Source: Candidatus Ruminococcus equi (GTDB taxonomy: Bacteria > Bacillota > Clostridia > Oscillospirales > Acutalibacteraceae). Taken from it: a stretch of 64,000 bases of DNA. Position 1 is the first letter of the stretch. Every line of letters begins with the position of its first letter. The stretch spans positions 9,484 to 73,483 of the forward strand of contig JAGHTC010000009.1 of NCBI GenBank assembly GCA_018065465.1, written 5' to 3'. Under the pieces are notes generated by a model. The model was not told where the DNA came from and ran no database searches. It saw only the letters and a program-made list of their open reading frames with translations. Both the position numbers and the translations under genes were made by a program. Positions 5,107-37,781 of this stretch are shown here, piece by piece.

Positions 5107-5128
5107 TATAGCATTCTGCGGAGGAAGT

Positions 5129-6220: not shown

Positions 6221-6242
6221 TTGCTTTTTAGGTTGTGATTTT

Positions 6243-7412: not shown

Positions 7413-7424
7413 GGAGAGCAAATT

Positions 7425-8471: not shown

Positions 8472-8496
8472 ATGATATGATTTTTAGGAGAAAGCG

Positions 8497-10017: not shown

Positions 10018-10044
10018 AATATTATTGATAAGGGGAAGAAAAAT

Positions 10045-10914: not shown

Positions 10915-10917
10915 CAA

Positions 10918-19529: not shown

Positions 19530-19543
19530 GGATAGATGATATT

Positions 19544-20467: not shown

Positions 20468-21034
20468 ATGGTACAGAAATTTGAATTTACACCGCTTGAG
20501 CTTGAGGGCGCATATCTTATCAAGCCTTTTTATGCAACGGACGACCGCGGTGGTCTTATCAAAGATTATAATGTCGATACATTCAAAGCAAACGGAATTG
20601 ACCACGACTTAAAGGAAGTTTTCTACACTATTTCAAAGCGCGGCGTTATCCGTGCTACACATTTTCAACTGGTAAAACAGCAGGCTAAATTAGTCCGTTG
20701 TGTCAGCGGTCATGTCTATGATGTTATCGTTGACCTGCGAATTGATTCACCTACTTTCGGTAAGTGGCAGGGCTTTCACCTTACAGGTGAAAACACCAAT
20801 TCTTTGCTGGTGCCCCAGTATTTCGGTCACGGTTATCTTGTAATTGAAGACTCCGTTGTCAGTTACAAATGTGCCGAAGTGTTCTACGGTGAAGGTGATT
20901 CGGGCATTATGTATAATGACCCCGACATTGCTATAGAATGGCCTTTTGAACTTATCGGCGGAAAAGAAAATCTTATTATCAGCGAAAAGGACAAAGCCCT
21001 TATGTCGCTGAAGGATTATAAAAAATTATTCTGA
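20468..21034 (+). CDS. RmlC-family NDP-4-keto-6-deoxyhexose 3,5-epimerase
   Basis: 'RGVIRATHFQ..QAKLVRC..G.VYDVIVDLR.DSPTFGKW', 'FGHGY', 'SYKC'; His/Lys/Tyr catalytic positions present. Confidence 0.92.
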   Translation: MVQKFEFTPLELEGAYLIKPFYATDDRGGLIKDYNVDTFKANGIDHDLKEVFYTISKRGVIRATHFQLVKQQAKLVRCVSGHVYDVIVDLRIDSPTFGKWQGFHLTGENTNSLLVPQYFGHGYLVIEDSVVSYKCAEVFYGEGDSGIMYNDPDIAIEWPFELIGGKENLIISEKDKALMSLKDYKKLF

Positions 21035-21050
21035 TTTTGAGGAAAGCATA

Positions 21051-22196: not shown

Positions 22197-22771
22197 TTAT
22201 GATTGACAGAATACTTGTATCTATTTATGATGCACCACTGCAAAAAACGCTTTTCGTAGTTGCCTTCTTTATAATATTATGGATTGTCTTTTCCGTTTTG
22301 TCGGTGAAAAAGGGAAAATTTGCTTTTGCTTTTAGGGTAATAAATTTTGCTGTTTTCTTTGTATCTGTTTTCGGGATAATTGCAATGACGGTTCTTTCAA
22401 GGCAAGAGGGAAGTTTTCAGAACAATTTTATTCCCTTTGCGTATCTGAAGGAAAATGAATTTTTGTTTGATCTAAAGCGTTCAATGCTTATGAACAGTAT
22501 TTTATTTATACCTTTCTCGTTAACTTTTCCCTTTGTTTTGGGCAGTAAGTTTTCGTGGAAAAACGCTATCCTTACCTTAGTGTTCGGTATTATGTTTTCC
22601 GTTTGTGTTGAGGCAGTGCAGTTGTTTTTATCAATCGGAAAAGCGGATATTGATGATGTGATTTTCAACACCTTGGGTGTCGTTATCGGCGAAATCCCGT
22701 ATATGATTTATGGTCTATTCAGCAGAAAGAACGGTGAGAAAAATAAACATAGAAGATATAAACATCAATAA
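22193..22771 (+). CDS. VanZ-family membrane protein
   Basis: Hydrophobic; 'NSILFIPF', 'VEAVQ..LSIGKADIDDVIFNTLG'. ATG 22199 is an alternative start. Confidence 0.85.
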   Translation: MIMIDRILVSIYDAPLQKTLFVVAFFIILWIVFSVLSVKKGKFAFAFRVINFAVFFVSVFGIIAMTVLSRQEGSFQNNFIPFAYLKENEFLFDLKRSMLMNSILFIPFSLTFPFVLGSKFSWKNAILTLVFGIMFSVCVEAVQLFLSIGKADIDDVIFNTLGVVIGEIPYMIYGLFSRKNGEKNKHRRYKHQ

Positions 22772-23264
22772 TGCACCCATAGAAACAGAAAGAAAATTTC
22801 TTATTGAATTTCCAGATATCGAAAAACTGTCTTTGATGCCATCATATTCTTGTGTTCATATTGAACAGACTTATCTGAAAAAAGAAAACGGCGACAAATG
22901 CAGAGTAAGAAAAATTATGGATAGTCAAGGGGTTAAGTATATATTTACACAAAAGGAAAAGATTTCCGAACTTTCGCGCTACGAGTTTGAAACTCAAATC
23001 AGTAAAGAAGAATACGAAAATCTGCTTTTATTAAAAATGCCACACTCAAATACGATAATAAAAGACAGGCATACGTTCTTTTACAATAATCAAAAATACG
23101 AAGTAGATATTTATGAATTTTGGACTGATAAAGCAACAATGGAAGCAGAAACAGAAAAGGAAGATACACAAGTGCTGATACCGCCTTGTGTTACGCTTAT
23201 AGAAGAAGTAACATTCGACAGGCGGTACAGAAATTCATCTCTTGCAAAAAATCATACATTTTAG
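22710..23264 (+). CDS. CYTH-domain (triphosphate tunnel) protein
   Basis: ExExK motif 'IETERKFLI', 'IEQTYL', 'RVRK', 'KDRHTF', 'YEVDIY', 'MEAE'; exact start uncertain. Confidence 0.85.
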   Translation: MVYSAERTVRKINIEDININNAPIETERKFLIEFPDIEKLSLMPSYSCVHIEQTYLKKENGDKCRVRKIMDSQGVKYIFTQKEKISELSRYEFETQISKEEYENLLLLKMPHSNTIIKDRHTFFYNNQKYEVDIYEFWTDKATMEAETEKEDTQVLIPPCVTLIEEVTFDRRYRNSSLAKNHTF

Positions 23265-23266
23265 TA

Positions 23267-23300
23267 AAAGCGACTTATCTTTTGATAGGTCGCTTTCTTT
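23267..23300 (+). terminator. Intrinsic terminator ending the polysaccharide operon
   Basis: AAAGCGACTTATC-TTTT-GATAGGTCGCTTT stem (one G.T pair) followed by CTTT. Confidence 0.8.
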
Positions 23301-23308
23301 ATATTTAG

Positions 23309-23337
23309 TTGACAATATACATAAAAAGTAATATAAT
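23309..23337 (+). promoter_or_regulatory. Consensus sigma-A promoter for capD-galE-glmS
   Basis: TTGACA (23309-14), 17 nt, TATAAT (23332-37). Confidence 0.85.
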
Positions 23338-23402
23338 CAATATGTATAATTATGAGTTATTTTGGGACAGTATGAATTTTTTTGAGATTTGGGGGAAACA
23401 AG

Positions 23403-25298
23403 ATGAAAAAGATAAATGCAAGAAAAATACTTTTGATGTTCACGGATATTATACTCGTTTCGGTATCATCGTGGCTTTCAAACAGCATTTTGATGATAGT
23501 TTGCCAGGCTATGAAAGTTAATCCCAGCAGAATAACCGTAAACCCGTACAGACTTTTCTGGGTTATTGCGCTGAATGTTTTGTTCTGCTTTTTCAGTATG
23601 TTTGTTTGCGGAGCATATACAAAAACCTGGCGTGAGTTTTCTAAAAGAGATTACCTTATGTCTATTTTGGGTATTGCCATCGGACTGGCACTCAGCCTTG
23701 TTTTCACTTTGCTTACCGGATATACGGCAACAGCGTGGTTTTATGTAGTTAACTTTGTGCTTACCTCTGCTGTTATTGTACTTTTCAGATTTATTTTCAA
23801 AAAGACTTTCCTCAACCTTACCGAAGCGGGCAGAAGCGAAAACTACGAACGCACTCTTATCGTCGGTGCGGGACAGGCAGCAAAGATTATCCTTACCGAT
23901 ATAAGAAGTGCAAGAAGCGACAACAACAACCCGTCAAGAAATATTCTTCCCGTATGTATGGTCGATGATGACGCCACAAAAAGGGGAAAAAGAATTCTCG
24001 GAATTGATGTTATCGGTACAACAAAAGATATACCTAAAATCTGTGATGAATGGAATATAGAACTGATTATTTTTGCCATTCCGTCTTGTGATGAAGAAGA
24101 ACGAAAGAGAATTATGGAAATTTGTTCTTCTACCGACTGCAAAATAAAAATGGTCCCATATCTTTCACAGATATTATTTGACGACAATGAAGGCCCTCAA
24201 CTTTTAAATCAGGTAAAAGATATAAAAATCGAAGACCTTTTGGGCAGAGACCCGATTACCTTTGATAAATCAAAAATAAGAAGTTTTATTGAAAATAAAG
24301 TATGTATGGTAACCGGTGGCGGCGGTTCAATCGGCTCCGAACTTGTCAGACAGATTGCAAAGTATAATCCAAAGCAGGTTATCATAGTAGATATTTACGA
24401 AAACAACGCCTATGATATCCAGCAGGAACTTTACATCGAATACGAAGACAAGCTGAATTTAGTAACGCTTATTGCTTCCGTTCGCGATTACAAAAAGATG
24501 GAAACGATATTCCAAAAATACAAGCCCGATATAGTTTTCCATGCTGCTGCACATAAGCATGTTCCGCTGATGGAAGTTTCACCCGCAGAAGCGGTGAAGA
24601 ACAATATCTTCGGCACATGGAACATGGTAACTCTTGCTGAACTTTACAGAGTAAAAAAATTCGTTATGATTTCCACCGATAAAGCCGTAAATCCGACAAA
24701 TGTTATGGGTGCGACAAAGCGTTGTTGCGAAATGATAGTTCAGTACAAATCACAGTCGGGCAGTGAGACTGAATTTGTTACAACAAGATTCGGTAATGTT
24801 TTGGGTTCAAACGGCTCCGTTATTCCGCTTTTCAGACGACAGATTGAAAGCGGTAAACCCGTTACGGTTACTCACCCCGACATCATCCGCTACTTTATGA
24901 CCATTCCCGAGGCTGTATCACTGGTACTTGAAGCAGGCTCTATCGCAAACGGCGGTGAGATTTTTGTTCTCGATATGGGCGACCCCGTAAAGATTACAAC
25001 TCTTGCAGAAAACCTTATCCGTATGTACGGCAAGGTACCTTACCGTGATGTTGAAATCAAGTTCACAGGTCTTCGTCCCGGCGAGAAACTTTTTGAAGAA
25101 TTGCTTATGGACGAAGAAGGCTTGAAATCGACAGAGAATAAAAAGATATTTATCGGAAATCAAATCAATATTGACGCACCCGTGCTTTTATCTCAACTTG
25201 AAACTTTGCAGGAATTTGCAGAAAACAATGAAGACGAAAAGGCAGTACAGTTGTTATCAGAAATAGTTCCTACTTTCAATCATAAAATAAACAGATAG
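23403..25298 (+). CDS. CapD/PglF-family membrane-anchored UDP-sugar 4,6-dehydratase
   Basis: Four N-terminal TM segments, 'LIVGAGQA', 'IEDLLGRD', 'VTGGGGSIGSEL', 'FHAAAHKHVPLME', 'ISTDKAVNPTNVMGATK', 'RFGNVLGSNGSVIPLF'. Confidence 0.93.
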   Translation: MKKINARKILLMFTDIILVSVSSWLSNSILMIVCQAMKVNPSRITVNPYRLFWVIALNVLFCFFSMFVCGAYTKTWREFSKRDYLMSILGIAIGLALSLVFTLLTGYTATAWFYVVNFVLTSAVIVLFRFIFKKTFLNLTEAGRSENYERTLIVGAGQAAKIILTDIRSARSDNNNPSRNILPVCMVDDDATKRGKRILGIDVIGTTKDIPKICDEWNIELIIFAIPSCDEEERKRIMEICSSTDCKIKMVPYLSQILFDDNEGPQLLNQVKDIKIEDLLGRDPITFDKSKIRSFIENKVCMVTGGGGSIGSELVRQIAKYNPKQVIIVDIYENNAYDIQQELYIEYEDKLNLVTLIASVRDYKKMETIFQKYKPDIVFHAAAHKHVPLMEVSPAEAVKNNIFGTWNMVTLAELYRVKKFVMISTDKAVNPTNVMGATKRCCEMIVQYKSQSGSETEFVTTRFGNVLGSNGSVIPLFRRQIESGKPVTVTHPDIIRYFMTIPEAVSLVLEAGSIANGGEIFVLDMGDPVKITTLAENLIRMYGKVPYRDVEIKFTGLRPGEKLFEELLMDEEGLKSTENKKIFIGNQINIDAPVLLSQLETLQEFAENNEDEKAVQLLSEIVPTFNHKINR

Positions 25299-25308
25299 GA
25301 GAAAGACT

Positions 25309-26325
25309 ATGAAAGTCTTACTGACAGGCGGAGCAGGATACATTGGCAGTCATACCTGCGTTGAGTTGATTAACTCAGGTTATGAACCCGTTATCGCCGA
25401 TAATCTTTCAAACAGTTCAATAAAGGTGCTTGACAGGATTGAGAAAATCACAGGCAAAAAGCCGATATTTTACGAAATTGATGTTGCGGACTTTGACTCT
25501 CTTGATAAACTGTTTTTTGAACAGGACATAGATGCTGTTATCCATTTTGCCGGATACAAGGCAGTCGGCGAAAGTTATATGTTCCCGGTAAAGTATTATA
25601 GAAATAATATAAATACAACTCTTACCCTGCTTGATGTAATGAAAAAGCACGGCGTTAACAAAATAGTTTTCAGTTCATCTGCAACGGTTTACGGTATTCC
25701 GAAAACTACTCCTTGTCTGGACGAAACAATGCCTACTTGTTGTGCAAATCCCTATGGATGGACAAAACTTTTTGTCGAGCAAATATTAAGGGATACAGCA
25801 ACTGCCGAAAAAGAATTTTCAGTGGTCCTTTTGAGATATTTTAACCCGATAGGTGCTCACGAAAGCGGACTTATCGGTGATAACCCGAACGGAATACCGA
25901 ATAACCTTATGCCCTATATTACTCAGGTTGCGGTAAAAAAACTGCCCTATCTGCGTGTTTTCGGAAATGACTATAACACAAAAGACGGTACAGGTGTGCG
26001 AGATTATATCCATGTTGTAGATTTGGCAAGGGGACACTTAAAAGCACTTGAATATGCAGATAAACACAATGGGACTGAGGTGTTTAATCTCGGAACCGGA
26101 AACGGATGCAGTGTTCTCGATGTGGTAAACGCTTTTTCAAAAGCAAATGATATGGAAATACCTTATCAAATTTGCGACAGACGCCCGGGAGATATTGACG
26201 AATATTTTGCAAATCCCAAAAAGGCAAATGAAATCCTTAATTGGAAAGCCGAATTTGACCTTTTTGATATGTGCAGAGATTCGTGGAATTGGCAAAAAAA
26301 TAATAAAAACGGTTATGATGATTAA
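25309..26325 (+). CDS. galE: UDP-glucose 4-epimerase
   Basis: 'TGGAGYIGSHT', 'IHFAGYKAVGES', 'FSSSATVYG', 'NPYGWTK', 'LRYFNP', 'PNNLMPY'. Confidence 0.96.
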   Translation: MKVLLTGGAGYIGSHTCVELINSGYEPVIADNLSNSSIKVLDRIEKITGKKPIFYEIDVADFDSLDKLFFEQDIDAVIHFAGYKAVGESYMFPVKYYRNNINTTLTLLDVMKKHGVNKIVFSSSATVYGIPKTTPCLDETMPTCCANPYGWTKLFVEQILRDTATAEKEFSVVLLRYFNPIGAHESGLIGDNPNGIPNNLMPYITQVAVKKLPYLRVFGNDYNTKDGTGVRDYIHVVDLARGHLKALEYADKHNGTEVFNLGTGNGCSVLDVVNAFSKANDMEIPYQICDRRPGDIDEYFANPKKANEILNWKAEFDLFDMCRDSWNWQKNNKNGYDD

Positions 26326-26371
26326 CTAAATCAATTATATATTATTAAATCTATTTTTAGGAGACTTTGTT

Positions 26372-28195
26372 ATGTGTGGAATAGTTGGATATGTTGGCCC
26401 CAGAGATTGCTCGGAAGTCCTTGTTTCGGCATTGTCGAAACTTGAATACAGAGGATATGACTCTGCGGGTATTGCTGTCTTTGATGACGGAAAAATCAAG
26501 GTGGCAAAATCAAAAGGCAGACTCAAAGACCTTGAAGATAAAATGGAGAAAGAGGGAAAGTTATCAGGTCACGCCGGTATAGGCCATACAAGATGGGCAA
26601 CTCACGGTGAACCTTCGGATATCAACTCTCATCCCCATTCGGGAAAAAATGTTACCATAGTACATAACGGTATTATTGAAAACTACAAGGACTTAAAGCA
26701 ATTTTTGCTTGATAAAGGTGTTATCTTCTTGAGTGATACCGATACAGAAGTTGTAGCACTTCTTCTTGATTACTACTATAACGGCAACCCCATTGAAACC
26801 ATAAAAAAGGTTTTATCGGAGATTCGAGGCTCTTTTGCACTCGGTATCGTTTTTGCCGATAAACCCGACACGGTCTATGCCGTAAGATGTGAAAGTCCCC
26901 TTATCGTTGGACAGGGACAGGATGAAAGTTTTATCGCTTCCGATGTTCCCGCTATTATTCAATACACAAAGAACTATTATCTCCTTGAAAAAGGCGAAAT
27001 CGCCATATTAAAAGACGGTTCTGTCAGCTTTTGCGATACAGACGGAAACAAGATTGAGAAGGAACTCAAAACAGCCGATTGGGACCAAGACGCAGCAGAA
27101 AAAGGCGGTTACGACCACTTTATGATAAAAGAAATCCACGAACAGCCCACTGCAGTTAAAACTACAATTACTCCGAGGATTGAGAACGGCTTGCCCTCAC
27201 TTTCCGAGTGCGGAATTACTCTTGACGCGCTTAAATCTTTCAAGCAGATTTTTGTTGTTGCCTGCGGTACCGCTATGCACGCAGGTATGGTCGGCAAATA
27301 TGTAATGGAAAAACTTGCCCGTGTACCCGTTATCGTTGATATCGCGTCGGAATTCCGCTATCGTGAGCCGATTGTCGGCGAAGGCGATTTGGTAATCATC
27401 ATTTCACAGTCCGGCGAAACGGCAGATTCCCTCGCCGCTTTGAAACTTTCAAAGAGCCTTGGCGCAAAGACACTTGCCATAGTAAATGTAAAGGGCAGTT
27501 CTATTGCAAGAGAAGCGGATATGGTTATCTATACTCACGCAGGCCCCGAGATTGCCGTTGCTTCTACAAAGGCTTATCTTGTTCAACTTTCAGTTATGTA
27601 TCTTCTCTCGTTTGAGATGGCTTTTGCCAAAGGAATGATTGACGAAAACGAATGCAGAAGATTGACAGAAATTTTGACAAAAACTCCCGAATATATTGAA
27701 GATACCATCAACAAAGTTGCTGATGACTGCAAATCGATTTCAGAACAACTTGTTGATACCGAAAGTATGCTTTATATCGGACGCGGACTTGACTATGCAC
27801 TTTCTATGGAAGGCTCCTTAAAACTTAAAGAGATTTCCTACATACATTCGGAAGCATACGCTGCAGGCGAACTCAAACACGGTACAATCTCGCTTATTAC
27901 TAATGGAATGCCCGTTGTAGCAATCGCAACACAAAACGCCTTACTTGAAAAAACCGTTTCCAATATCAAAGAAGTAAAAGCAAGAGGCGCGATGTCGATT
28001 ATCATCTGTGATGAATTTGCTAATATCGACCCCGAAGCCGCTGATTATATCATAAGAGTACAGCAGATTGAAGAAATACTCATGCCTTTAATTGCGGCTG
28101 TGCCTATGCAACTTCTTGCATACTATACATCCGTTAACAGAGGTAACGATGTAGATAAACCGAGAAACCTTGCTAAATCGGTTACTGTTGAATAA
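26372..28195 (+). CDS. glmS: Glutamine-fructose-6-phosphate aminotransferase
   Basis: 'MCGIVG', 'LEYRGYDSAG', 'GHTRWATHG', two SIS domains, C-terminal 'DKPRNLAKSVTVE'. Confidence 0.98.
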   Translation: MCGIVGYVGPRDCSEVLVSALSKLEYRGYDSAGIAVFDDGKIKVAKSKGRLKDLEDKMEKEGKLSGHAGIGHTRWATHGEPSDINSHPHSGKNVTIVHNGIIENYKDLKQFLLDKGVIFLSDTDTEVVALLLDYYYNGNPIETIKKVLSEIRGSFALGIVFADKPDTVYAVRCESPLIVGQGQDESFIASDVPAIIQYTKNYYLLEKGEIAILKDGSVSFCDTDGNKIEKELKTADWDQDAAEKGGYDHFMIKEIHEQPTAVKTTITPRIENGLPSLSECGITLDALKSFKQIFVVACGTAMHAGMVGKYVMEKLARVPVIVDIASEFRYREPIVGEGDLVIIISQSGETADSLAALKLSKSLGAKTLAIVNVKGSSIAREADMVIYTHAGPEIAVASTKAYLVQLSVMYLLSFEMAFAKGMIDENECRRLTEILTKTPEYIEDTINKVADDCKSISEQLVDTESMLYIGRGLDYALSMEGSLKLKEISYIHSEAYAAGELKHGTISLITNGMPVVAIATQNALLEKTVSNIKEVKARGAMSIIICDEFANIDPEAADYIIRVQQIEEILMPLIAAVPMQLLAYYTSVNRGNDVDKPRNLAKSVTVE

Positions 28196-28221: not shown

Positions 28222-28246
28222 AAAGGCGGGTAACATCCCGCCTTTT
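28222..28246 (+). terminator. Intrinsic terminator after glmS
   Basis: AAAGGCGGG-TAACAT-CCCGCCTTTT. Confidence 0.85.
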
Positions 28247-28276: not shown

Positions 28277-28313
28277 TATTCATTTTTATCCTAATTTATT
28301 ATAAAAATGAATA
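28277..28313. promoter_or_regulatory. 13-bp inverted repeat upstream of the permease promoter (candidate operator)
   Basis: TATTCATTTTTAT (28277-89), 11 nt, ATAAAAATGAATA (28301-13). Confidence 0.45.
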
Positions 28314-28340
28314 AAATTAGTAAATATTTCGTAAAATTTC

Positions 28341-28369
28341 TTGACTTTCTGTTCTAAAAATGTTTTAAT
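28341..28369 (+). promoter_or_regulatory. Sigma-A promoter of the permease/HTH-LicC operon
   Basis: TTGACT, 17 nt, TTTAAT, with extended -10 TG at 28361-62. Confidence 0.65.
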
Positions 28370-28423
28370 TGTTATGCAAAATGAATTTTTTATTAACAAA
28401 ATTACATTTTTTGGGGGAAAATC

Positions 28424-29911
28424 ATGAACAAAGACAATCAAGGACAACATCTTGAGAAAAAACTCAATCCGATGAATGTTTGGGCTCTTGCGTTCGGATG
28501 TATTATCGGTTGGGGTGCATTCGTAAATCCCGGCAAGAAGTTCTTGCCGAAATCAGGTACCTTGGGTACGGCTATTGCTTTGGCTTTGGGCGCATTGATT
28601 ATGATAATCATTGCATTTTCGTACAGCTATATGGTGCCGAAATATCCGAAAGCAGGCGGTGAATTTACATTCACAAAAGTTTGCTTTGGCAAAAACTGCG
28701 CATATATCTGCGGTTGGTTTTTGATTATTGCTTATCTTGCAAATGTTCCGATGAACTCAACTGCTCTCGGACTTATTGTTGACGGACTTGACGGAGAAGC
28801 AAATATTCTGCGTTTTGGCTATCTTTATACGAGTGCGGGCTTTGACATTTACTTGGGTGAAATGCTCTTTGCTTTCCTGATTCTCATTCTGTTTGCCGTT
28901 TTCTCTATCAGAGGAGTAAAGGTCGCAGGTGTTATCCAAACTATTCTTGCAATTTTGCTTGCAGTAAGCGTGTTTGCACTTGTAATTGCCGCAATTATCA
29001 ATGTAATTAACGGTAATATAAAGATTGACAACATCAAGCCTTTCTGGGGATACGATAAAGAAGCCGCTCTTGCAGCAGGACAGTATTCGGAGGCTTTGGC
29101 AAATAACGACAAAATGTCGATTATGGCAGGTGTGCTTGCTACACTTTCAATAGCACCGTGGGCGTTTGTCGGCTTTGACACAATTCCGCAGGCTGCCGAA
29201 GAATTTAACTTCAAAACAAAGAAAGTAAACTTTATTATGATTATCGCCATTATTTTCGGCGGTTTCGTATATATAGCAAATAACACTATTGCGGCTGCTG
29301 CCGTTACTAATTACCCCGAACTGCTTACACAGGATTCCGGCAGATGGCTTTTGCTTGAAGCAGCAAGAAACCTGCTTGGTGTACCCGGTGTGGTTTTGGT
29401 CGGCGTTGCGGTATTTTCTGCCGTTCTTACAGGTATTATGGGCTTTTATATGGCATCTTCAAGACTTATGTATTCAATGTCAAAAGAAGGTTATCTGCCC
29501 AAGTTTTTCTCAAAACTTGACAAAAAGCACAACACACCGAAAGCCGCAATGATTTTCTGTATGATAGTATCCTTGTCAGGTCCTATTTTAGGCAGAGAAG
29601 CACTCGGATGGTTTGTTGATATGTCTGCTATCGGCGCTTCTATAGGCTATGGATTTACCTGCCTTTCTACACTTGTTACAATGAAAAGAGAAGGCGACAA
29701 AAAACCGATGCTTGCAATACTTGCAGTCCTTGGCTCGCTGTTCTCACTCATATTCCTGATTTTGCAGGTAGTTCCTATCCCCGGACTTGAGGGCGTACAT
29801 TTCGGAACAGAATCTTATATTATGCTTGCCGTATGGGTAGTTCTCGGTATCGTTTTCTATCTTTTCAAAGGCAAACAGTTTACAAATAAAGAGGAAAAAG
29901 CAGAGGTTTAA
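28424..29911 (+). CDS. APC-family amino acid/amine permease
   Basis: 'ALAFGCIIGWGAF', 'YSYMVPKYPKAGGEFTF', 'WAFVGFDTIPQAAEE', 'SRLMYSMS..G.LP'; about 12 TM segments. Confidence 0.92.
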   Translation: MNKDNQGQHLEKKLNPMNVWALAFGCIIGWGAFVNPGKKFLPKSGTLGTAIALALGALIMIIIAFSYSYMVPKYPKAGGEFTFTKVCFGKNCAYICGWFLIIAYLANVPMNSTALGLIVDGLDGEANILRFGYLYTSAGFDIYLGEMLFAFLILILFAVFSIRGVKVAGVIQTILAILLAVSVFALVIAAIINVINGNIKIDNIKPFWGYDKEAALAAGQYSEALANNDKMSIMAGVLATLSIAPWAFVGFDTIPQAAEEFNFKTKKVNFIMIIAIIFGGFVYIANNTIAAAAVTNYPELLTQDSGRWLLLEAARNLLGVPGVVLVGVAVFSAVLTGIMGFYMASSRLMYSMSKEGYLPKFFSKLDKKHNTPKAAMIFCMIVSLSGPILGREALGWFVDMSAIGASIGYGFTCLSTLVTMKREGDKKPMLAILAVLGSLFSLIFLILQVVPIPGLEGVHFGTESYIMLAVWVVLGIVFYLFKGKQFTNKEEKAEV

Positions 29912-29920
29912 TAAGAAAAA

Positions 29921-30811
29921 ATGGAAATTAACAAAAAAACATTTGACATTCTTGAACTTTTGAGTAATAATAGTAATTACTCACAACGAGAAATTTCGAA
30001 TGAACTCGGTATCAGCGTTGGCACTGTTAACAAGTATGTTGCCGAAATGACACAAGAAGGCTTGGTCTGTGACGGCAAGATTACAAAAAAGGGACTTAAT
30101 GCCTTAGAGCCGTACAGAGTTAAGCGTGCTGTGTTTATTGCTGCAGGCTTTGGCTCGCGACTTGTTCCTATTACGCTGAATACCCCGAAACCTCTTGTAA
30201 GGGTAAACGGCAAGAGAATTATCGACACTTTGCTTGATGCCGTTGTTGCCGCAGGGATTGAGGAAATTTACATTGTCAGAGGATATTTGGGCGAACAGTT
30301 CGACCAGTTAACCTACAAATATCCGATGATTAAATTTATCGAAAATCCTGTGTATAACGAAGCAAACAATATCAGTTCGGCTTCCTGTGCAAGTTATCTT
30401 TTGAAAAACGCCTATGTTTTGGAAGGCGACTTGATGCTCTACAATCCGAAACTGATAAAGAAATATCAATATCATTCAAACTACCTCGGTATCAAATGCG
30501 AGACCACCGACGACTGGTGTTTTAAGGTTAACGACAAAGGCATTATCAAAAAGATGGCTATCGGCGGAACGAAATGCTACCAGATGGTCGGTATATCCTA
30601 TTGGAATGAAACCGACGGCGCGAAACTTGTCGGTCATATCAAAAGCGTTTATCAGTCTCCGGGCGGTAAAGAACGCTACTGGGACCAGGTTGCTCTTGAA
30701 TATTTTATTGATGAATATGATGTTTATGTTCGAGAATGTCAGTTTGAAGATATAGTCGAAATCGATACATTCAACGAACTTAAGAAGCTTGACAAAACAT
30801 ACGATTTGTGA
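29921..30811 (+). CDS. Winged-HTH fused to a LicC-like (phosphocholine cytidylyltransferase-family) nucleotidyltransferase
   Basis: 'YSQREISNELGISVGTVNKYV' HTH, then 'AVFIAAGFGSRLVPITLNTPKPLVRVNG', 'NNISS', 'LEGD', 'EIDTFNEL'; no kinase domain. Confidence 0.85.
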   Translation: MEINKKTFDILELLSNNSNYSQREISNELGISVGTVNKYVAEMTQEGLVCDGKITKKGLNALEPYRVKRAVFIAAGFGSRLVPITLNTPKPLVRVNGKRIIDTLLDAVVAAGIEEIYIVRGYLGEQFDQLTYKYPMIKFIENPVYNEANNISSASCASYLLKNAYVLEGDLMLYNPKLIKKYQYHSNYLGIKCETTDDWCFKVNDKGIIKKMAIGGTKCYQMVGISYWNETDGAKLVGHIKSVYQSPGGKERYWDQVALEYFIDEYDVYVRECQFEDIVEIDTFNELKKLDKTYDL

Positions 30812-31353: not shown

Positions 31354-33438
31354 TCATTGTGTATAGATTTTGAAAGAATTGAAAGAAATTGTCATTGTGC
31401 GGTCATTTACATCTTCTTCCATTTCGCTTTCGTCGATATCATCAAAGTAGAAGTCGAGTGTTAATGTGCGGTTGGTCGGCATTATCTTTGTCGGAACAAG
31501 GACATTCAGCCCCGTGCTTTCGAGCGAACTGTCGATTTCTTCTTTGAAAATCTGTCTGCCGTTTGCTTCAATCGTACAGGTTGTTGGTTTGTCAACACTT
31601 TCAACTCCGAAGAAAACATGCAGGTCTATTGCATCTTTCGGAATGTTACTTATCGGAATGACCATCTGACCTCTCGGCCCTGCCATGGGAGTACGCCAGC
31701 CTGTTGTGTGCATAAAGCCCTCGGTGGTATAGAGGTTTGCCGTTGTATCCATATCAAACGAAAGCAAGGTTCCGAGCTTGTATTTTTCTACAACGCCGTT
31801 GTTGGTGTAGAAGCAGTCCATAAGTTCCATATTCTTGTACTTATCGGCAGAAGTTTTCAGCCTGTATTGCTCAACACGGGTATCTTTGTTTGCGCCTGCA
31901 TTAAGGAAGAAGTCTCTTTCTCTGCTTTCTTTTTCCTTAATGTCATAGTACGCTTTTCCCGAGCCGTATTCCGAGTAGGGTGCGTCGGTCAAAGTTTTTA
32001 CCAAAGTAGCGGGTAAATCAAAATGAGATACAGGAGCGGAAGAAGTTTTGTACCCGTGTTTTGCGCTTGCTTTCTTGATAAGAAGAACAGGATGTTGCAT
32101 AAGTTCCGTATCGCCGTGGTTAGCGGTTATGATGATAGTTGACTTGTCAAAGACACCGTTTTCTTTCATATTGTCTATCATATCAAAAAGATAGGTAAAG
32201 CAACCGTTAATCTGTTCATAAAGGTCTGTACCGTTCTCATCTTTTTGGGCGTCTTCTGTTAAAGTATAGGGTGCCTCGGCACCTTCAAGCGAGTAGATAC
32301 GCAGAGATTTGTCGTATTTATCGGTGTAGGTAAAGCCTTCTTTGTTTTTGTAATCTTCATAAAACTTTGCGTCGGATGAAGTATAGGTATTTTCGCTTTT
32401 ATAGTTATTAAACAGATTAGCGTCAGGCCAGAAGGGCATTTTAAGATAATGAGGCATATAAGTATATAATGTGTACTGGTATATGACCTTTGTCATAGCC
32501 TTGTATGCAGTGAAGTTTTCGGCTTGGCTGACAATATTTTCAACCGACTCCGTTGCACCTCTGCCGAAAAATGTTGATTCTGCGAAAATACGTGAGTCGA
32601 CATCATTATTTTTCAGCGTTAAGTATGCTGTATCACCGTCCCAGATATTGTCGATATAAGAACTGTATCTGCTTTCTTTTTTGTACGCCGTACCCGAAAG
32701 CATTGACGGGAGTGCTTCTATCTTACTTGCACCCGATGCAAGAGCGTTTGTATATTCTGTAAAGCAGTCAAGTTTTTCTTCATAATCTGGATGGTCTTCT
32801 TTGAAATCCTCAAAATACTTTTGGTCAAAAGAGTCCAGAATAAATACTACGGTATTTTTCTGATTGGAGAGTTCATACATACCGTCTGTTGTTACTTCAT
32901 AAGATGTTTTGTTGATAACATCACTGTTTTTGACAACAGTAACAGCAAGGGCAATACCCTGTACAATAATGAGCGTAAGCGAAGTGTAGATAAGTATTTT
33001 TCTCCATTGCTTTTTGAATACCATAATAAATGCAAACGGCAAAGCAAGGCACGCAGCCCACATAGCGGAGTCAATAGCGCCGTAGGTGGTGTAGTCCTCC
33101 CAAACGATTTTACTACCGTCAAGAACACCTGAGCCGTATTTTATGTTAAAGAAGTTACCCTGAATACAAAAGCCCAAAGCAAGCCCGAAAACAAGACAGC
33201 AAAGTGCTTTGTGAATAGCACTTTTCGGCAATGAACACACAAGGGTAGATAATACAAACGATACGACAAAAGCGACAGAAACGGGAACAAGCATCGAAAA
33301 GAAGCCAAACCAGAACTTGTCGTTATCTGCAATATAAAGATTCAGAGGACCGAAAAACACAAGCGAAAAAGTAAGAAAAAGGCTTACTGCTCCGCCGAGC
33401 ATAAATCGGTGCTTTAGTGAAAAATATTTATCATCCAT
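31354..33438 (-). CDS. Membrane protein with an extracellular sulfatase/alkaline-phosphatase-like (LTA-synthase-type) domain
   Basis: About 5 N-terminal TM segments, 'TVVFILDSFD', 'IIITANHG', 'PVLLIK', 'PVSHFDLPATL'. Start moved to ATG 33438 (GGAG upstream). Confidence 0.7.
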   Translation of the reverse strand: MDDKYFSLKHRFMLGGAVSLFLTFSLVFFGPLNLYIADNDKFWFGFFSMLVPVSVAFVVSFVLSTLVCSLPKSAIHKALCCLVFGLALGFCIQGNFFNIKYGSGVLDGSKIVWEDYTTYGAIDSAMWAACLALPFAFIMVFKKQWRKILIYTSLTLIIVQGIALAVTVVKNSDVINKTSYEVTTDGMYELSNQKNTVVFILDSFDQKYFEDFKEDHPDYEEKLDCFTEYTNALASGASKIEALPSMLSGTAYKKESRYSSYIDNIWDGDTAYLTLKNNDVDSRIFAESTFFGRGATESVENIVSQAENFTAYKAMTKVIYQYTLYTYMPHYLKMPFWPDANLFNNYKSENTYTSSDAKFYEDYKNKEGFTYTDKYDKSLRIYSLEGAEAPYTLTEDAQKDENGTDLYEQINGCFTYLFDMIDNMKENGVFDKSTIIITANHGDTELMQHPVLLIKKASAKHGYKTSSAPVSHFDLPATLVKTLTDAPYSEYGSGKAYYDIKEKESRERDFFLNAGANKDTRVEQYRLKTSADKYKNMELMDCFYTNNGVVEKYKLGTLLSFDMDTTANLYTTEGFMHTTGWRTPMAGPRGQMVIPISNIPKDAIDLHVFFGVESVDKPTTCTIEANGRQIFKEEIDSSLESTGLNVLVPTKIMPTNRTLTLDFYFDDIDESEMEEDVNDRTMTISFNSFKIYTQ

Positions 33439-34510
33439 TTTTGTTATCTCCGTCAATAAGTTTTCTCACAAAAGAGAGGTTAACATTCGGCTCTACAAAA
33501 GGCCTTGTTATTTTCCTTACGGGTTTGCTTGCAAACAGGAAACACATAATAATCGCAAATGCTATCAAAAGAATCGCATCAACAGTAACATCTTCTGCAT
33601 AAGGCAGTCTGTAGAGGTTGTAGAAATACTTCATTATTAATACTGCTTGCAAATGCAGTACAAAGATATAGAGTGAATACTGTCCGAGGTGGGACAAAAA
33701 GGTCTTTTTTCTCGGTGCGATAAGAATAACCCCGAATGAACACAAAATGCCGAGGATAAACGCGCCGACATTCAAAGCAATAAGGCGATTTGTGCTTACA
33801 TCAATTTCTTCCATTTGTTCGTAGATATTGTAACCGCGCCAAAAAACTTCACGCAGGTCAAGGTCAGATACTTTCAAAATGAGAAGGAAGACACCGACAA
33901 AGAATAAAAGCGCCAAGATTTTTGATAAAACGATAACGACTTTGCTCTTGTTGAATTTTTCCAAAGTATCTTTTTGCAGAAAATATCCGATAAGGAAGAA
34001 CGGATAGTAGGTAAGCACTCTGAAAAGTTGACCGCTTATTGCAAGATTAAAGGCATAGGCGCATATCATGATAACTACAGATATCCACATCATATGCTTG
34101 CCGAATTTGTCGATTAGCGCGGGGGTAATAAGCATAAATATTCCCAAAACAAGAATGTACCACATTCCGTAAGTAGGCTCAAGAAGATTAAATGTCATTG
34201 TGTCGCCGGTAAATCCTTGAATAATTATACCCACGCAGTAATAAAGCACATAGGGAATAAGAAGTCTTTTGAAAATTCCCGCATAGTCTTTTTCATCAAT
34301 TTTGCGTTTTGCAAAATATCCCGATATCATAATAAATGCGGGCATATGAAAAAGATTGATAAAATAGTATATTTGCCTTATTGCGAGAGAGTTATAAAAT
34401 ATTGTACCGATACAGTGAGCAACAACAACAAGAATAATAAGTATTCCTTTTACATTGTCGAGCCAGTAGTCGCGTTCTTTTATGTTTTTGTTTTCTGTTG
34501 ATAAAGTCAT
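33431..34510 (-). CDS. Acyltransferase family 3 (OafA-like O-acyltransferase)
   Basis: 'RDYWLDNVKGILIILVVVAH', 'FHMPAFIMISGYF', 'WYILVL', 'LGQYSLYIFVLH'. Start moved to ATG 34510. Confidence 0.9.
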   Translation of the reverse strand: MTLSTENKNIKERDYWLDNVKGILIILVVVAHCIGTIFYNSLAIRQIYYFINLFHMPAFIMISGYFAKRKIDEKDYAGIFKRLLIPYVLYYCVGIIIQGFTGDTMTFNLLEPTYGMWYILVLGIFMLITPALIDKFGKHMMWISVVIMICAYAFNLAISGQLFRVLTYYPFFLIGYFLQKDTLEKFNKSKVVIVLSKILALLFFVGVFLLILKVSDLDLREVFWRGYNIYEQMEEIDVSTNRLIALNVGAFILGILCSFGVILIAPRKKTFLSHLGQYSLYIFVLHLQAVLIMKYFYNLYRLPYAEDVTVDAILLIAFAIIMCFLFASKPVRKITRPFVEPNVNLSFVRKLIDGDNKNG

Positions 34511-34621: not shown

Positions 34622-34650
34622 TTGACTTTTGCTTATCGGTAATGTAAAAT
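34622..34650 (+). promoter_or_regulatory. Sigma-A promoter for FHA-FtsW/PBP
   Basis: TTGACT, 17 nt, TAAAAT. Confidence 0.7.
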
Positions 34651-34682
34651 TAGACTATATTTACAGTAAAAGAGGGAAGACA

Positions 34683-36374
34683 GTGAATTTTCAGGCTTTT
34701 CTTGATATAGCGGTGGTAGCGCTGCGATTTCTTATGCCTATATACGCTGTGGTAATCGTATATCAGTGCTATGCCTCAATGAGGCGTCACAGACGCCCCG
34801 AAAAACCCCTTGTTACTTTGCAGGTCAAGGGAGCAAAACAAAAAGTTCCCGTGCTGTTTTGGGAAAACTCGATAGGCAGGAGCAAGGGCTCGGATATCTG
34901 TGTACTGGACCCGTCTGTTTCCCGTGAGCATTGTGTACTTTTAAGACGACAGGAAGGCTGGTTTGTGTCCGATATCGGCTCAAAATCAGGTACTTTCGTC
35001 AACGAGAAAAAGGCTCGCGACAGAACAAGGGTGCTTATTGATGACGAAATCCGTGTCGGCAATACGACTTTTATACTAAAACGCGGTGACGAATACAAAG
35101 AGGGTTTGCGTCCGTCATGGTTTTTCTCAAAGGCGTCGAACAAAGGCTCGTTGCAGCCCTATAAACTTATGATACTTATTACTCTTTTCCATTTGTTTAT
35201 GGCGGTTGAAGCGTGTTTTTCCAATGAAGTAAAAGACTTTATGCCCTTGATGATATTTGTTTGTCTTGAAGTAATAATATGGGCGTTTTTCTTTGTTTCG
35301 TCTTTTGTTTTCAACAGAATCAATTTTGAGATTGAAGCACTGATGCTTTTCTTGTCGGGAATAGGAGTTATGCTATTGGTTCGTCAGGATGTGCGTTCTG
35401 CGTTTGTTCAACTTATCGCGATGACAGTAGGCATAGTTTTCTTCTGCTTCCTTGTCAAGTTTATCGAAAATCCCGACAGGGTTAACTCGTGGCGACTTGC
35501 CATTATGATAGGCGCTGTTGTACTTCTTTTGATTAACCTTGTATTCGGCAGAGTGCAAAACGGTGCTGCAAACTGGATAACGATAGGCTCTGTTTCCGTG
35601 CAGCCTTCGGAATTTGTTAAGGTTGCATACATCTTTGTCGGAGCAGCCGCCCTCGACAAATTACAGACAAAAAGAAACTTTATTGAATTTATCATCTTTT
35701 CGGCTATTTGTGTAGGTGCGCTCGCGATAATGGGCGACTTCGGTACGGCTCTTATCTTCTTTGCAACCTTCTTGATTATAGCGTTTATGCGTTCCGGCGA
35801 TTTTAAAACAGTTATACTTGCACTTGTCGGTGCGGTGTTCGCGGGACTTATCGTTTTGAAATTTAAACCCTATGTCGCAGAAAGATTTTCGTCATGGGGA
35901 CATGTTTGGGAAAATGCCCAGACTACAGCCTACCAGCAGGCAAGAGTGCTGACATATACCGCTTCGGGCGGTATCCCCGGCGTCGGTGTCGGAAACGGAT
36001 ATCTCAAGTACGTTGCAGCGTCCGAGTCCGACCTTGTTTTCGGCCTTGTAAGTGAGGAAATGGGCGTTGTTATCGCGTTTGTAATTGCGGCGGCTATTAT
36101 CGCACTTGCTTTTTATTCGAGAGCGATTACCACCCGTTCAAGAAGTACATTCTATTCTATCTCCGCTTGCTGTGCGGCAGGACTTATGATATTCCAGTCG
36201 GCACTCAACATTTTCGGTGCTACCGATATTCTTCCGCTTACAGGTGTAACGCTTCCGTTTGTAAGCGCAGGCGGTTCGAGTATAATTGCCTGTTTCGGGC
36301 TTATGGCGTTTATCAAGGCGGCTGATGAAAGAACTTATGCCGCAAAGCGTATCAGACCGAAAGAAGAAGTCTGA
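34683..36374 (+). CDS. FHA domain fused to a FtsW/RodA/SpoVE (SEDS) protein
   Basis: FHA 'NSIGRS..SDI..DPSVSREH..DIGSKSGTFVN'; SEDS 'NGAANWI..G..SVQPSEFVK', 'DFGTA', 'GVTLPFVSAGGSS'; GTG start 34683. Confidence 0.92.
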   Translation: MNFQAFLDIAVVALRFLMPIYAVVIVYQCYASMRRHRRPEKPLVTLQVKGAKQKVPVLFWENSIGRSKGSDICVLDPSVSREHCVLLRRQEGWFVSDIGSKSGTFVNEKKARDRTRVLIDDEIRVGNTTFILKRGDEYKEGLRPSWFFSKASNKGSLQPYKLMILITLFHLFMAVEACFSNEVKDFMPLMIFVCLEVIIWAFFFVSSFVFNRINFEIEALMLFLSGIGVMLLVRQDVRSAFVQLIAMTVGIVFFCFLVKFIENPDRVNSWRLAIMIGAVVLLLINLVFGRVQNGAANWITIGSVSVQPSEFVKVAYIFVGAAALDKLQTKRNFIEFIIFSAICVGALAIMGDFGTALIFFATFLIIAFMRSGDFKTVILALVGAVFAGLIVLKFKPYVAERFSSWGHVWENAQTTAYQQARVLTYTASGGIPGVGVGNGYLKYVAASESDLVFGLVSEEMGVVIAFVIAAAIIALAFYSRAITTRSRSTFYSISACCAAGLMIFQSALNIFGATDILPLTGVTLPFVSAGGSSIIACFGLMAFIKAADERTYAAKRIRPKEEV

Positions 36375-36398
36375 CAGGAAAGCAAAGGTGATTGATTT

Positions 36399-37781
36399 AT
36401 GAAAAGGATAATGCAGAGAAGTTACCTTATATTTTTTATCACGCTTGCGTTTTTTGCAGGTGTTGCTTTCCTTGCGGTTAAGCTTGTTTTAGGCTCGGCT
36501 GATTGGGTGTCAAAACCGTATAACGGCCATATGGCATCGTCAAGTGGTTTATCCCAGGCGGGCTCTATTCTCGACAGAAACGACAACGCTTTTGTCGAGT
36601 CCGACAAAGACGGAAAAAGAAAATATAACGGTGACTATGATACAAGGTGTTCATACCTTCATATAGTCGGCGATAATTCGCTTAATATCTCCACAGCGGT
36701 ACAAAGTATGTATCGTACCGAACTGACGGGTTACAGCCTGCTTTTCGGTTTGGGTATGCCAAAATCTTTGAAAACGAACTCTGACATAAAACTTACTGTT
36801 GATATAGACGCGACAAAGGCGGCATATCAAGCCTTAGACGGTAAAAAAGGCGCTTGTGTTGTTTATAATTACAAAACGGGCGAAATACTTTGCTCGACGA
36901 GTTCGCTTTCCTACGACCCCGCAGACCCGCCCGAAATAACAAAGGAAAACGAAGAAGAATACAGCGGTGTTTACCTTGACAATGTTGTGTCTTCCGCTTA
37001 CACTCCCGGCTCGATTTTCAAGACGGTCACTGCCGCCTGTGCTATCGAAAACATCCCCGATATTTATGAGCGAACATTTGACTGTTCCGGCGCTTACGAA
37101 ATTGAGGGCGACGATATTACCTGCGAAGACGCGCATGGTACTGTTACTTTCGAAGAAGCGTATGCTTACTCTTGTAACGTCGCTTTTGCAAAAATCGCAC
37201 AGGAACTCGGAACGGAAAAACTTACGAAAACCGCCGAGGAAATGGGCTTTAACAAACAATTTGTAATGAGCAATATCAATGTTCAAAAATCAAGTTTTGA
37301 TGTCAAAGAAGCAAACGACAACCAACTTGCGTGGTCGGGAATAGGTCAGCATACTGACCTTGCAAATCCGCTTCATATGGCTATGATGTGCGGCGCTATC
37401 GCAAACGACGGTACGCCCGTTGTACCCTATCATGTTTCGAACAACACCTCAATTTTTGCAAAACTCGGATTGACAAAAGGCGGTCAGACAGGCGAGAAAA
37501 TGCTCTCCCCCGATACGGCAGAAAAGGTAAAAGACCTTATGCGAAAAGCCGCTAATTACTATTACAATGTTCGCGGACTTAATATAGCGGGACTCGATTT
37601 TTGTGCAAAAACAGGTACTGCCGAAGTCGATAAAGAGAAACAGCCGAATGCGTGGTTTATCGGATTTACGGAAAGTGACGAACATCCATACGCGTTTGCG
37701 GTGGTTGTTGAAGAAGGCGGATACGGTATTTCCGCCGCAACCCCCGTTGCCGTAGCGGCAATAAATGAACTTGTAAACTGA
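36399..37781 (+). CDS. Class B penicillin-binding protein (PbpA-like transpeptidase)
   Basis: N-terminal TM; 'PGSIFK' (SxxK), 'YSCN' (SxN), 'AKTGTAE' (KTG). Confidence 0.92.
   Translation: MKRIMQRSYLIFFITLAFFAGVAFLAVKLVLGSADWVSKPYNGHMASSSGLSQAGSILDRNDNAFVESDKDGKRKYNGDYDTRCSYLHIVGDNSLNISTAVQSMYRTELTGYSLLFGLGMPKSLKTNSDIKLTVDIDATKAAYQALDGKKGACVVYNYKTGEILCSTSSLSYDPADPPEITKENEEEYSGVYLDNVVSSAYTPGSIFKTVTAACAIENIPDIYERTFDCSGAYEIEGDDITCEDAHGTVTFEEAYAYSCNVAFAKIAQELGTEKLTKTAEEMGFNKQFVMSNINVQKSSFDVKEANDNQLAWSGIGQHTDLANPLHMAMMCGAIANDGTPVVPYHVSNNTSIFAKLGLTKGGQTGEKMLSPDTAEKVKDLMRKAANYYYNVRGLNIAGLDFCAKTGTAEVDKEKQPNAWFIGFTESDEHPYAFAVVVEEGGYGISAATPVAVAAINELVN

Follow-up and report, generated by a model that had tools for sequence, protein, structure and literature searches.

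What does a bacterium do with a permease gene followed by a gene that joins a DNA-binding domain to a nucleotidyltransferase, and what would each part of this pair act upon? The question is raised by a two-gene operon at positions 28277-30811 of a 64,000-nucleotide stretch of Candidatus Ruminococcus equi DNA (hereafter the window), for which a sequence-only reading had proposed import of an amine, a phospho-amine or an aminophosphonate, activation with cytidine triphosphate (CTP) for surface decoration, and repression of the operon's own promoter. Comparing the locus with its orthologues and with the rest of the host genome, we conclude that the operon is probably an acquisition-and-activation module for 2-aminoethylphosphonate (AEP) that would repress itself through operators made of two half-sites, and that the substrate of its enzyme is very probably AEP or a close aminophosphonate, as judged from sequence comparison. 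The genes and domains at the centre of the argument are the following:

28424-29911, + strand: gene for an APC-superfamily permease, 495 amino acids (from the list of open reading frames, ORFs)
29921-30811, + strand: gene for a fusion of a winged helix-turn-helix (wHTH) domain and a LicC-fold cytidylyltransferase, 296 amino acids (ORF list)
29921-30106, + strand: wHTH domain, residues 1-62 of the fusion (HTH_24, 2.6e-13; confident model)
30107-30811, + strand: LicC-fold cytidylyltransferase domain, probable PntC (CTP + AEP -> cytidine monophosphate (CMP)-AEP + pyrophosphate, PPi; match to 1jyk)

The two-gene operon stands as it had been described once both ORFs, the stop, the start and the spacer are re-read: the TAA of the permease gene ends at 29911, the 9 nucleotides between the genes are TAAGAAAAA, and the ATG of the fusion gene is at 29921, with AGAGG 13 nucleotides 5' of it. 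The proposed architecture of the second protein, a wHTH fused to a LicC-type cytidylyltransferase without a choline-kinase domain, was likewise borne out by profile searches, in which HTH_24 matches residues 4-49 (2.6e-13, with MarR_2 and HTH_IclR matching too), the C-terminal part matches NTP_transferase and NTP_transf_3 (PF00483/PF12804), and a kinase domain is absent from the fusion. Residues 63-292 align end to end with Streptococcus pneumoniae LicC (1jyk; E 3e-32, 32% identity), the next sequence match being the PntC domain of Tde1415 (6pd1; 2.6e-13). The AlphaFold2 model is confident throughout (predicted local distance difference test, pLDDT, 95.3; predicted template-modelling score, pTM, 0.91) and shows the wHTH as three helices and a wing at pLDDT >87. 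When the enzyme domain is compared with solved structures by Foldseek, LicC 1jyk matches at a target-normalised TM-score of 0.90 (root-mean-square deviation 2.2 A) and PntC-AEPT 6pd1/6pd2 rank next; no solved structure among the Foldseek matches covers both the wHTH and the enzyme domain. The nucleotide-binding loop AAGFGSRL and the PKPLV segment are present, in line with the G-x-G-[ST]-R-[LM] motif and conserved Lys of LicC-type enzymes; across 38 homologues, neither R80 nor K90 varies, and the same holds for D170, E280 and D282, which align to the metal-binding D107, E216 and D218 of LicC. With its catalytic and Mg residues intact, the domain looks like an active enzyme and not a dead sensor domain. 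A homodimer prediction (two fusion copies, 38-row alignment) scored 0.02 against a mark of 0.42, a value that has no bearing on dimerisation either way.

The pocket is best described as a hybrid of LicC and PntC. Indeed, LicC Tyr85 is replaced by Ala148 and the position of LicC D105 (Tde-PntC E104) is taken by Glu168, nearly invariant in the family; LicC Trp136 is kept as Trp199 and the position of LicC D192 is Asp255; this second specificity position is Asp in the fusion (P0002) and in most members, and Glu in loci L097, L101, L103 and L104. The phosphocholine box of LicC is thus not found as a whole, and the residues alone do not settle the substrate. PntC enzymes, which are LicC-like and found in ppm clusters, favour AEP >400-fold; Glu for Asp at two amine-contacting positions (Tde-PntC E104 and E196) was pointed out, not established as a strict determinant, and Ari-PntC is likewise LicC-like (Rice et al. 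2019, PMC6697681). As the pocket is a hybrid, our substrate assignment draws mostly on gene context.

This context comes from 80 orthologous loci (62-97% identity) that span Ruminococcus, Acutalibacteraceae, Oscillospiraceae, Lachnospiraceae, Christensenellales, Negativicutes and Erysipelotrichales, whose neighbouring ORFs were clustered de novo and whose partner genes, at most four genes from the fusion, were counted over 74 loci. A three-gene ABC importer resembling PhnS2/T2/U2 is the partner in 36 of these 74 loci, the AEP synthesis trio aepZ-ppm-ppd in 17, an APC permease of the window's type in 14, and an APC permease together with the trio in 2 (L053 and L065); 5 loci have none of the three. 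The trio adjoins the fusion in 19/74 loci, which is the association with ppm, ppd and an AEP aminotransferase gene that is typical of PntC, and its members score above curated cut-offs (AEP aminotransferase TIGR03301, 450 bits vs 361; phosphoenolpyruvate (PEP) mutase TIGR02320, 405 vs 320; phosphonopyruvate decarboxylase TIGR03297, 466 vs 312). The ABC genes best match, by a wide margin, the "putative 2-aminoethylphosphonate ABC transporter" models PhnS2, PhnT2 and PhnU2 (for the PhnU2 model, 396 bits vs 107 for the next family). No kinase is found among the recurrent neighbour families of the orthologous loci. The idea of uptake followed by CTP activation without a kinase thus holds, in that the fusion nearly always adjoins a transporter or AEP synthesis genes and no licA was found; among the three kinds of imported substrate that had been entertained, the neighbouring genes favour an aminophosphonate, and they and the missing licA speak against choline. 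More widely, over 8000 database clusters (>8000; ~295 amino acids) carry both domains under generic names, mostly from metagenome-assembled genomes of Oscillospirales and Lachnospirales. On a separate note, locus L103 of genome G051 (5006-11337) holds three LicC-like genes in a row with a normal-size wHTH fusion in the middle, and its flanking ORFs, of ~600 amino acids and 27-30% identical to the fusion, may be larger multi-domain relatives.

From the perspective of the host genome (G000; 1.73 Mb, 100% complete by marker genes), a different pathway has to be considered, namely one of the Lic type, in which choline or ethanolamine would be taken up, phosphorylated by a kinase that profile searches do not recognise, and converted into cytidine diphosphate (CDP)-choline for decoration by LicD. 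Such a pathway would agree with pneumococcal LicC being the best match in both sequence and fold, with the retention of Trp199 (LicC W136) and of Asp at the D192 position, with the presence of ethanolamine and choline carriers in the APC family, and with the three LicD genes that a search of the host genome returned. However, 2 of these 3 LicD genes adjoin IspD/TarI-like cytidylyltransferases, which points to ribitol-phosphate, and the corresponding search for licA returned none: no choline kinase exceeds the Pfam cut-off in this complete genome, where PF01633 reaches 19 bits at best, inside a STAS-APH fusion that is also the sole gene in which PF01636 is above its cut-off. This gene, a STAS-APH-type kinase fusion of 402 amino acids beside an HD-domain protein (contig C70:9696-10904, or L004:868-2076), is the only APH-family gene of the genome and lies in an unrelated context. 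The orthologues of the fusion, as described above, adjoin AEP synthesis genes or AEP-type ABC importers with no recurrent kinase neighbour, the operator presented below is shared with aepZ-ppm-ppd, and two LicC pocket residues are changed (Y85 to Ala, D105 to Glu). Taken together, we hold the Lic-type pathway to be very improbable.

AEP as the substrate is, by comparison, in keeping with what the host encodes. A search for pepM found the PEP mutase gene, in an aepZ-ppm-ppd operon on contig C86 that is unlinked to the window operon, and the fusion is the only LicC/PntC-like gene of the genome; the host would thus make AEP, as its genes predict, and probably imports it. We also observed a CTP_transf_like (PF01467) domain at the N-terminus of the PEP mutase both in the host (C86:1233-2528, L088) and in L031:10042-11346, so that AEP-making genomes hold two different nucleotidyltransferases, a Ppm-fused CTP_transf_like domain being a known trait of Pnt clusters (Rice et al. 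2019, PMC6697681).

What the wHTH would read is suggested by the region upstream of the operon, which contains the following elements:

28222-28245, + strand: intrinsic terminator of the upstream glmS-like gene (9-bp G+C stem, then a T run)
28278-28312: operator unit 1, ATTCA (28278-82)-N25-TGAAT (28308-12), same architecture as the family element
28341-28369, + strand: promoter (-35 TTGACT at 28341-46, 17-nucleotide spacer, TG at 28361-62 corresponding to -15/-14, -10 TTTAAT at 28364-69)
28351-28386: operator unit 2, GTTCT (28351-55)-N26-TGAAT (28382-86), straddling the -10

The terminator is the 5' boundary of the operon unit. The promoter was read by eye, a stricter consensus scan that wants A at position 2 of the -10 leaving TTTAAT unflagged, and it is 100% kept in the 97%-identical relative L008. 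The 13-bp inverted repeat that had been pointed out 5' of this promoter is present and perfect (28277-28289/28301-28313, 13/13, 11-nucleotide spacer), a perfect repeat of at least 13 bp being obtained in 9 of 2000 dinucleotide shuffles of the 228-nucleotide intergenic region; likewise, AAAATGAAT does recur at 28378-28386, just past the -10, where it contains the right half-site of operator unit 2. The 64-kb window has three further repeats of this kind, all of them terminator-like hairpins that contain G+C, and the 5+5 core pattern taken by itself is no more frequent there than chance predicts (2 found vs 2.0 expected). What makes the repeat significant is how far it extends, where it lies and that orthologues conserve it.

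With regard to this conservation, TGTTCAA/TTGAACA occurs upstream of orthologous operons in 27/66 regions vs 19/251 other intergenic regions (p 7e-10), and the family element reads TGTTCA-N25/26-TGAACA, with a half-site consensus T-GTTCA-WWWW and ~30 bp from centre to centre. We counted 74 strict units, GTTC[AC]-N24-27-[TG]GAAC, at most 260 nucleotides upstream of HTH-PntC, ABC binding-protein, APC or aepZ genes (78 loci), and the other 23 strict-unit matches in 1.12 Mb are close to the chance estimate (~17). Tandem units start 80-82 bp apart, exactly 81 bp in 14 pairs, and units often overlap or abut consensus promoters, either by straddling the -10, in which case the left half-site lies 5' of the transcription start, or by starting directly after strong promoters. 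The repeat in the window is a diverged variant of this family-wide element of two half-sites, which is found again in dozens of Clostridia of gut and rumen. The proposal of self-repression through the repeat is thus strengthened on one side, by a conserved, promoter-overlapping element that co-occurs with the fusion, and amended on the other, since the functional unit appears to be [G/A]TTCA-N25-TGAA[C/T] and not a 13-bp arm with an 11-nucleotide spacer. Unit 1 differs from the family element by a symmetric G-to-A and C-to-T change, and it is the A/T flanks of its half-sites that give the 13-bp arms of 28277-28313. Unit 2 has its left half-site in the promoter spacer and its right half-site just past the -10, which begins 13 nucleotides after the left half-site, a distance of 13-15 nucleotides being found in nine other loci (L006, L017, L018, L032, L034, L048, L060, L063 and L065). 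In L008, the half-sites and the promoter/unit-2 block are kept and the unit-1 spacer has diverged. The position weight matrix used for scoring was trained on strict GTTC cores; the A-variants of the window were assigned by architecture, position and the L008 footprint.

The distribution of the element follows that of the fusion. In the host, the C86 aepZ-ppm-ppd operon carries a GTTCT-N26-TGAAC unit between its promoter (TTGACA, 17 nucleotides, TATAAT) and its ribosome-binding site, which ranks seventh genome-wide and has the GTTCT-N26 form in common with unit 2, and an unlinked ABC operon of genome G005 carries two high-scoring units; on the other hand, no unit scoring >15 was found in eleven ppm loci (118 kb) of related genomes that lack the fusion. 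Present with the fusion and absent without it, the element tracks the HTH-bearing gene and not phosphonate genes as such, and the regulon that it appears to mark covers the import and synthesis of AEP together with the activating enzyme. Furthermore, orthologues show almost no variation in their recognition helix, S-[LV]-G-[TS]-[VI]-N-[KR], in keeping with the conserved half-site of the operator. From these sequence patterns, we are fairly confident that the HTH of the fusion binds this operator. A further observation concerns the best-scoring unit of the genome (C78:365-399, GTTCA-N25-TGAAC, score 23.9), which is intergenic and lies ~370 nucleotides upstream of a 509-amino-acid ORF (765-2294); it is either a further member of the regulon or a chance match, the other top genome-wide operator-like matches falling inside genes.

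The same element could conceivably act as RNA (a leader, an attenuator or a small riboswitch) with the fused HTH not being its reader. This reading is encouraged by the complementarity of the two cores and by the observation that 11/17 first-of-two units form a 10-18-bp hairpin (spacer plus downstream sequence, z < -3), with a loop that contains TGAAC, a U-rich tail, and stems whose sequences vary between species, so that the hairpin itself appears selected; in about 20 units, typically the first of two, a strong promoter ends just 5' of the left core and such a hairpin follows. The median z is -4.1 for first-of-two units. However, second and single units are unstructured (median z near 0), the left half-site lies between the -35 and the -10 in at least 9 loci and in window unit 2, hence is untranscribed there, the 80-82-bp phase of tandem units looks like helical phasing on DNA, and non-complementary GTTCC/TGAAC pairs exist. 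Moreover, Rfam matches in eight orthologous loci, scanned with gathering thresholds, are limited to tRNAs, RNAalifold on 17 hairpin-bearing units recovers the 5-bp core pairing only (the stems being out of register in the MAFFT alignment, so that this run gave no covariation count), and ppm loci of genomes that lack the fusion gene lack the element as well. We consider a pure RNA reading to be distinctly unlikely, and the element appears to be a DNA operator, to which some of the loci add a leader terminator.

As for the hairpins themselves, those of first units at L016:4432-4496, L043:6917-6981, L031:7855-7920 and L057:7887-7951 have their 5' arm in the 25-nucleotide spacer and directly follow a near-consensus promoter, the second unit lying ~81 bp further on; a possible role for such a hairpin is attenuation in concert with the regulator bound to DNA. 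Window unit 1, tried as RNA, folds weakly (-8.6 kcal/mol, z -1.4) and was set aside. That the hairpins are terminators of upstream genes was rejected at least for L039, whose upstream gene has its own terminator before the promoter.

If the enzyme acts on AEP, what does the permease carry? Its sequence matches AA_permease_2 (PF13520) at 1.9e-43 over residues 15-471, and no equivalog-level match near its cut-off was found in NCBIfam. Among 151 genomes of the same family, this permease subtype is restricted to the host genome and to G076, and adjoins the fusion both times; in the reverse test, 4/4 permease orthologues, chosen solely for the length of their contigs, adjoin a wHTH-NTP_transferase gene, the surrounding genes differing each time. 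Permease and enzyme thus look like a mobile, tightly coupled pair in which, on the simplest view, the enzyme receives its substrate from the permease, and AEP is, with modest confidence, the cargo that we favour. Known AEP importers are the ABC systems PhnSTUV, AepXVW and AepSTU and the MFS protein AepP, which feed catabolism (Murphy et al. 2021, PMC8316502). We found no precedent for an AEP transporter of the APC superfamily in the open-access literature, and an APC-type AEP importer serving anabolism would be new.

This assignment has to be weighed against the eventuality that the enzyme and the regulation are read correctly and that the permease either takes up something other than AEP, such as an amino acid or ethanolamine, or exports a by-product. 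A permease without an equivalog-level match would leave room for this, as would the membership of known AEP transporters in ABC systems and the MFS (AepP) with none described in the APC family, the capacity of the host to make its own AEP, and the APC gene placed beside synthesis genes in L053 and L065. Against it, the permease subtype always stands beside the fusion (2/2 family genomes and 4/4 in the reverse test), it takes the place that an AEP-type ABC importer holds in other loci, and in G076 (100% complete), which has no PEP mutase, two operator units precede LicD, the fusion and the APC gene. On balance, another cargo or an export role seems unlikely to us, and uptake of AEP by the permease is retained in what follows.

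The case of G076 is part of a broader pattern, since among the 151 genomes, 17 carry the full fusion, 16 a PEP mutase and 4 both. The fusion is found without a PEP mutase in 13 of the 17 carriers; 9 of these 13 reach a completeness of 93% or more, and one is closed in a single contig. In G076, the row of genes runs from LicD through one unidentified gene to the fusion and then the APC gene; G011 has the ABC genes and then the fusion; G005, G009 and G053 have an ABC importer elsewhere in the genome, these genomes too being devoid of PEP mutase. Near-complete carriers of the fusion that have no PEP mutase imply scavenging of AEP. Conversely, carriers of PEP mutase that lack the fusion often have a longer Ppm (668-680 amino acids in G018, G042 and G081), and these long ORFs fit the published Ppm-PntC fusions.

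The mechanism that we propose would run as follows. AEP, or a very close aminophosphonate, would enter through the APC permease and would also be made by the C86 operon, no kinase being needed because AEP already carries its phosphorus. The LicC-fold domain would act as PntC and convert AEP and CTP into CMP-AEP, which would be the donor for decorating a surface glycan or a teichoic-type polymer, with LicD-, TagF- or LtaS/EptA-like enzymes transferring the head group. The wHTH would bind the TGTTCA-N25/26-TGAACA operators at its own promoter and at the unlinked aepZ-ppm-ppd promoter, and the fusion would repress AEP supply in a BirA-like feedback, the most plausible trigger being occupation of its active site by product or substrate. 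Operators that lie over the -10 and +1 suggest repression and not activation, and pathway logic, in that the regulon includes biosynthesis genes, would point to co-repression by the end product or substrate; for both the sign of regulation and the ligand, we see the chances as evenly balanced.

Several observations weigh against this proposal as a whole. By both sequence and fold, the enzyme resembles LicC, which acts on phosphocholine, more than it does Tde-PntC, and at the second specificity position (LicC D192) it has the Asp of LicC. The matches of the ABC importers stay below the curated cut-offs, the host can make AEP itself, so that import is not strictly required, and in two loci the APC gene sits with AEP synthesis genes. 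On the side of the operator, the half-sites of the window are degenerate, with A for the otherwise fixed G in three of four, and the position weight matrix scores the window units below 14, so that they may bind weakly; finally, ~20 units are embedded in strong terminator-like hairpins, which a pure DNA-operator model leaves unexplained.

Which enzyme would transfer the head group, and onto what, may be approached through the genes around the operon. The nearest candidate is the convergent neighbour:

31354-33456, - strand: convergent multi-transmembrane protein with an outward alkaline-phosphatase/sulfatase-superfamily domain (LtaS/EptA-like; de novo cluster c9; N-terminal transmembrane segments visible)

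Its cluster includes proteins of 14 orthologous loci, 8 of them at most four genes from the fusion. One member of the cluster has a full-length PF00884 Sulfatase match (41.8 bits), the window copy having a weak Phosphodiest match alone, and a PDB sequence search with the neighbour gave no match; we regard it as a loosely linked candidate head-group transferase. The other candidate transferases of the host are a YidC-TagF protein on contig C47, a second LtaS-like gene on C91 and LicD on C40. The YidC-TagF protein deserves a mention of its own: it is a YidC-like insertase (60KD_IMP) fused to a TagF-like CDP-glycerol glycerophosphotransferase (~690-770 amino acids; L005:5389-7698 and host C47:4907-6982), the fusion recurs in 17 orthologous loci, often beside an LtaS/EptA-like protein, and it is a candidate CMP-AEP:polymer transferase. 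Upstream of the module, the + strand operon 17695-28195 encodes sugar-nucleotide enzymes (an NTP transferase, 4,6-dehydratases, a 3,5-epimerase and an NTP_transf_5 protein) and further VanZ, CYTH, CapD-like and GlmS-like proteins; these genes form a surface-polysaccharide locus that abuts the AEP module, with the polysaccharide as a plausible acceptor for the head group. Further along the window, 34629-37781 encodes an FHA domain fused to an FtsW/RodA/SpoVE-family protein (581 amino acids) and then a class B penicillin-binding protein, the fusion thus placing a phospho-threonine-reading domain on a peptidoglycan polymerase.

How does this module relate to known systems? With PntC (Ari1348 of Atopobium rimae; Tde1415 PntC-AEPT, 6PD1/6PD2; PMC6697681), the fusion has in common the LicC-type fold and catalytic residues, the linkage to ppm, ppd and an AEP aminotransferase gene, the Glu at the Tde-PntC E104 position and, in the linked clusters, a second, Ppm-fused CTP_transf_like domain. 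It differs by its N-terminal wHTH, by its frequent linkage to importers in genomes without ppm, and by Asp at the second specificity position, its activity being predicted here. PntC enzymes and Ppm-fused nucleotidyltransferases are already published (PMC6697681, PMC8942020); an HTH fusion, regulation or importer linkage goes unmentioned in both papers, "helix-turn-helix" and "regulat" having 0 occurrences in the main text of PMC6697681, and a full-text search of the open-access literature found no published description of a wHTH-LicC/PntC fusion. The Lic pathway of S. pneumoniae and Haemophilus influenzae follows the same logic of import, CMP activation and LicD-type transfer; in contrast to it, the module has no LicA kinase, an APC or ABC carrier takes the place of LicB, and the gene context is one of phosphonate and not choline. 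PhnSTUV, AepXVW, AepSTU and AepP take up AEP for catabolism, as a source of phosphorus or nitrogen, whereas uptake here would be tied to anabolic CMP activation, and the orthologue-linked ABC systems resemble the PhnS2/T2/U2 models, the carrier of the window belonging instead to the APC superfamily.

From the standpoint of regulation, the closest parallels are enzyme-repressors such as BirA, a biotin ligase with biotinyl-AMP as its co-repressor, NadR and PutA, together with the MocR-type wHTH-aminotransferase regulators. The fusion resembles them in that a DNA-binding domain is attached to an enzyme, or to a domain like one, from the pathway under control, and in an operator that overlaps the promoters of supply genes; control by a nucleotidylated intermediate is plausible. 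It departs from them in the class of enzyme, in half-sites set ~30 bp apart and often arranged as two units ~81 bp apart, and in a DNA binding that is predicted. What is new here is the consensus and architecture of the operator, the extension of the regulon to aepZ-ppm-ppd, the control in ppm loci without the fusion, the reverse test of the permease, and a host genome that encodes the synthesis of AEP and probably imports it as well.

Surface decoration with phosphonates is known from genomics and a few enzymes, and its regulation and anabolic salvage are essentially unexplored; in this regard, the family described here gives a defined candidate regulator, operator and regulon. It may even represent, as a tentative generalisation that could well prove too broad, a widespread and hitherto undescribed class of enzyme-repressors in Clostridia of gut and rumen, in which an active PntC would sense its substrate or CMP-AEP and shut off AEP synthesis and import by means of wHTH domains placed on half-sites ~30 bp apart, often in two phased units of which one lies within a leader terminator, many carriers, devoid of PEP mutase, scavenging phosphonate from neighbours or diet and some doing so through the first AEP transporter of the APC family. 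The module would also provide a candidate new class of AEP transporter and a better name for the many thousands of proteins that databases list as "NTP transferase domain-containing protein" or "winged helix-turn-helix transcriptional regulator". Finally, genomes that hold the activating enzyme and an importer without the enzyme that forms the C-P bond outline a candidate route of phosphonate cross-feeding in gut and rumen communities.

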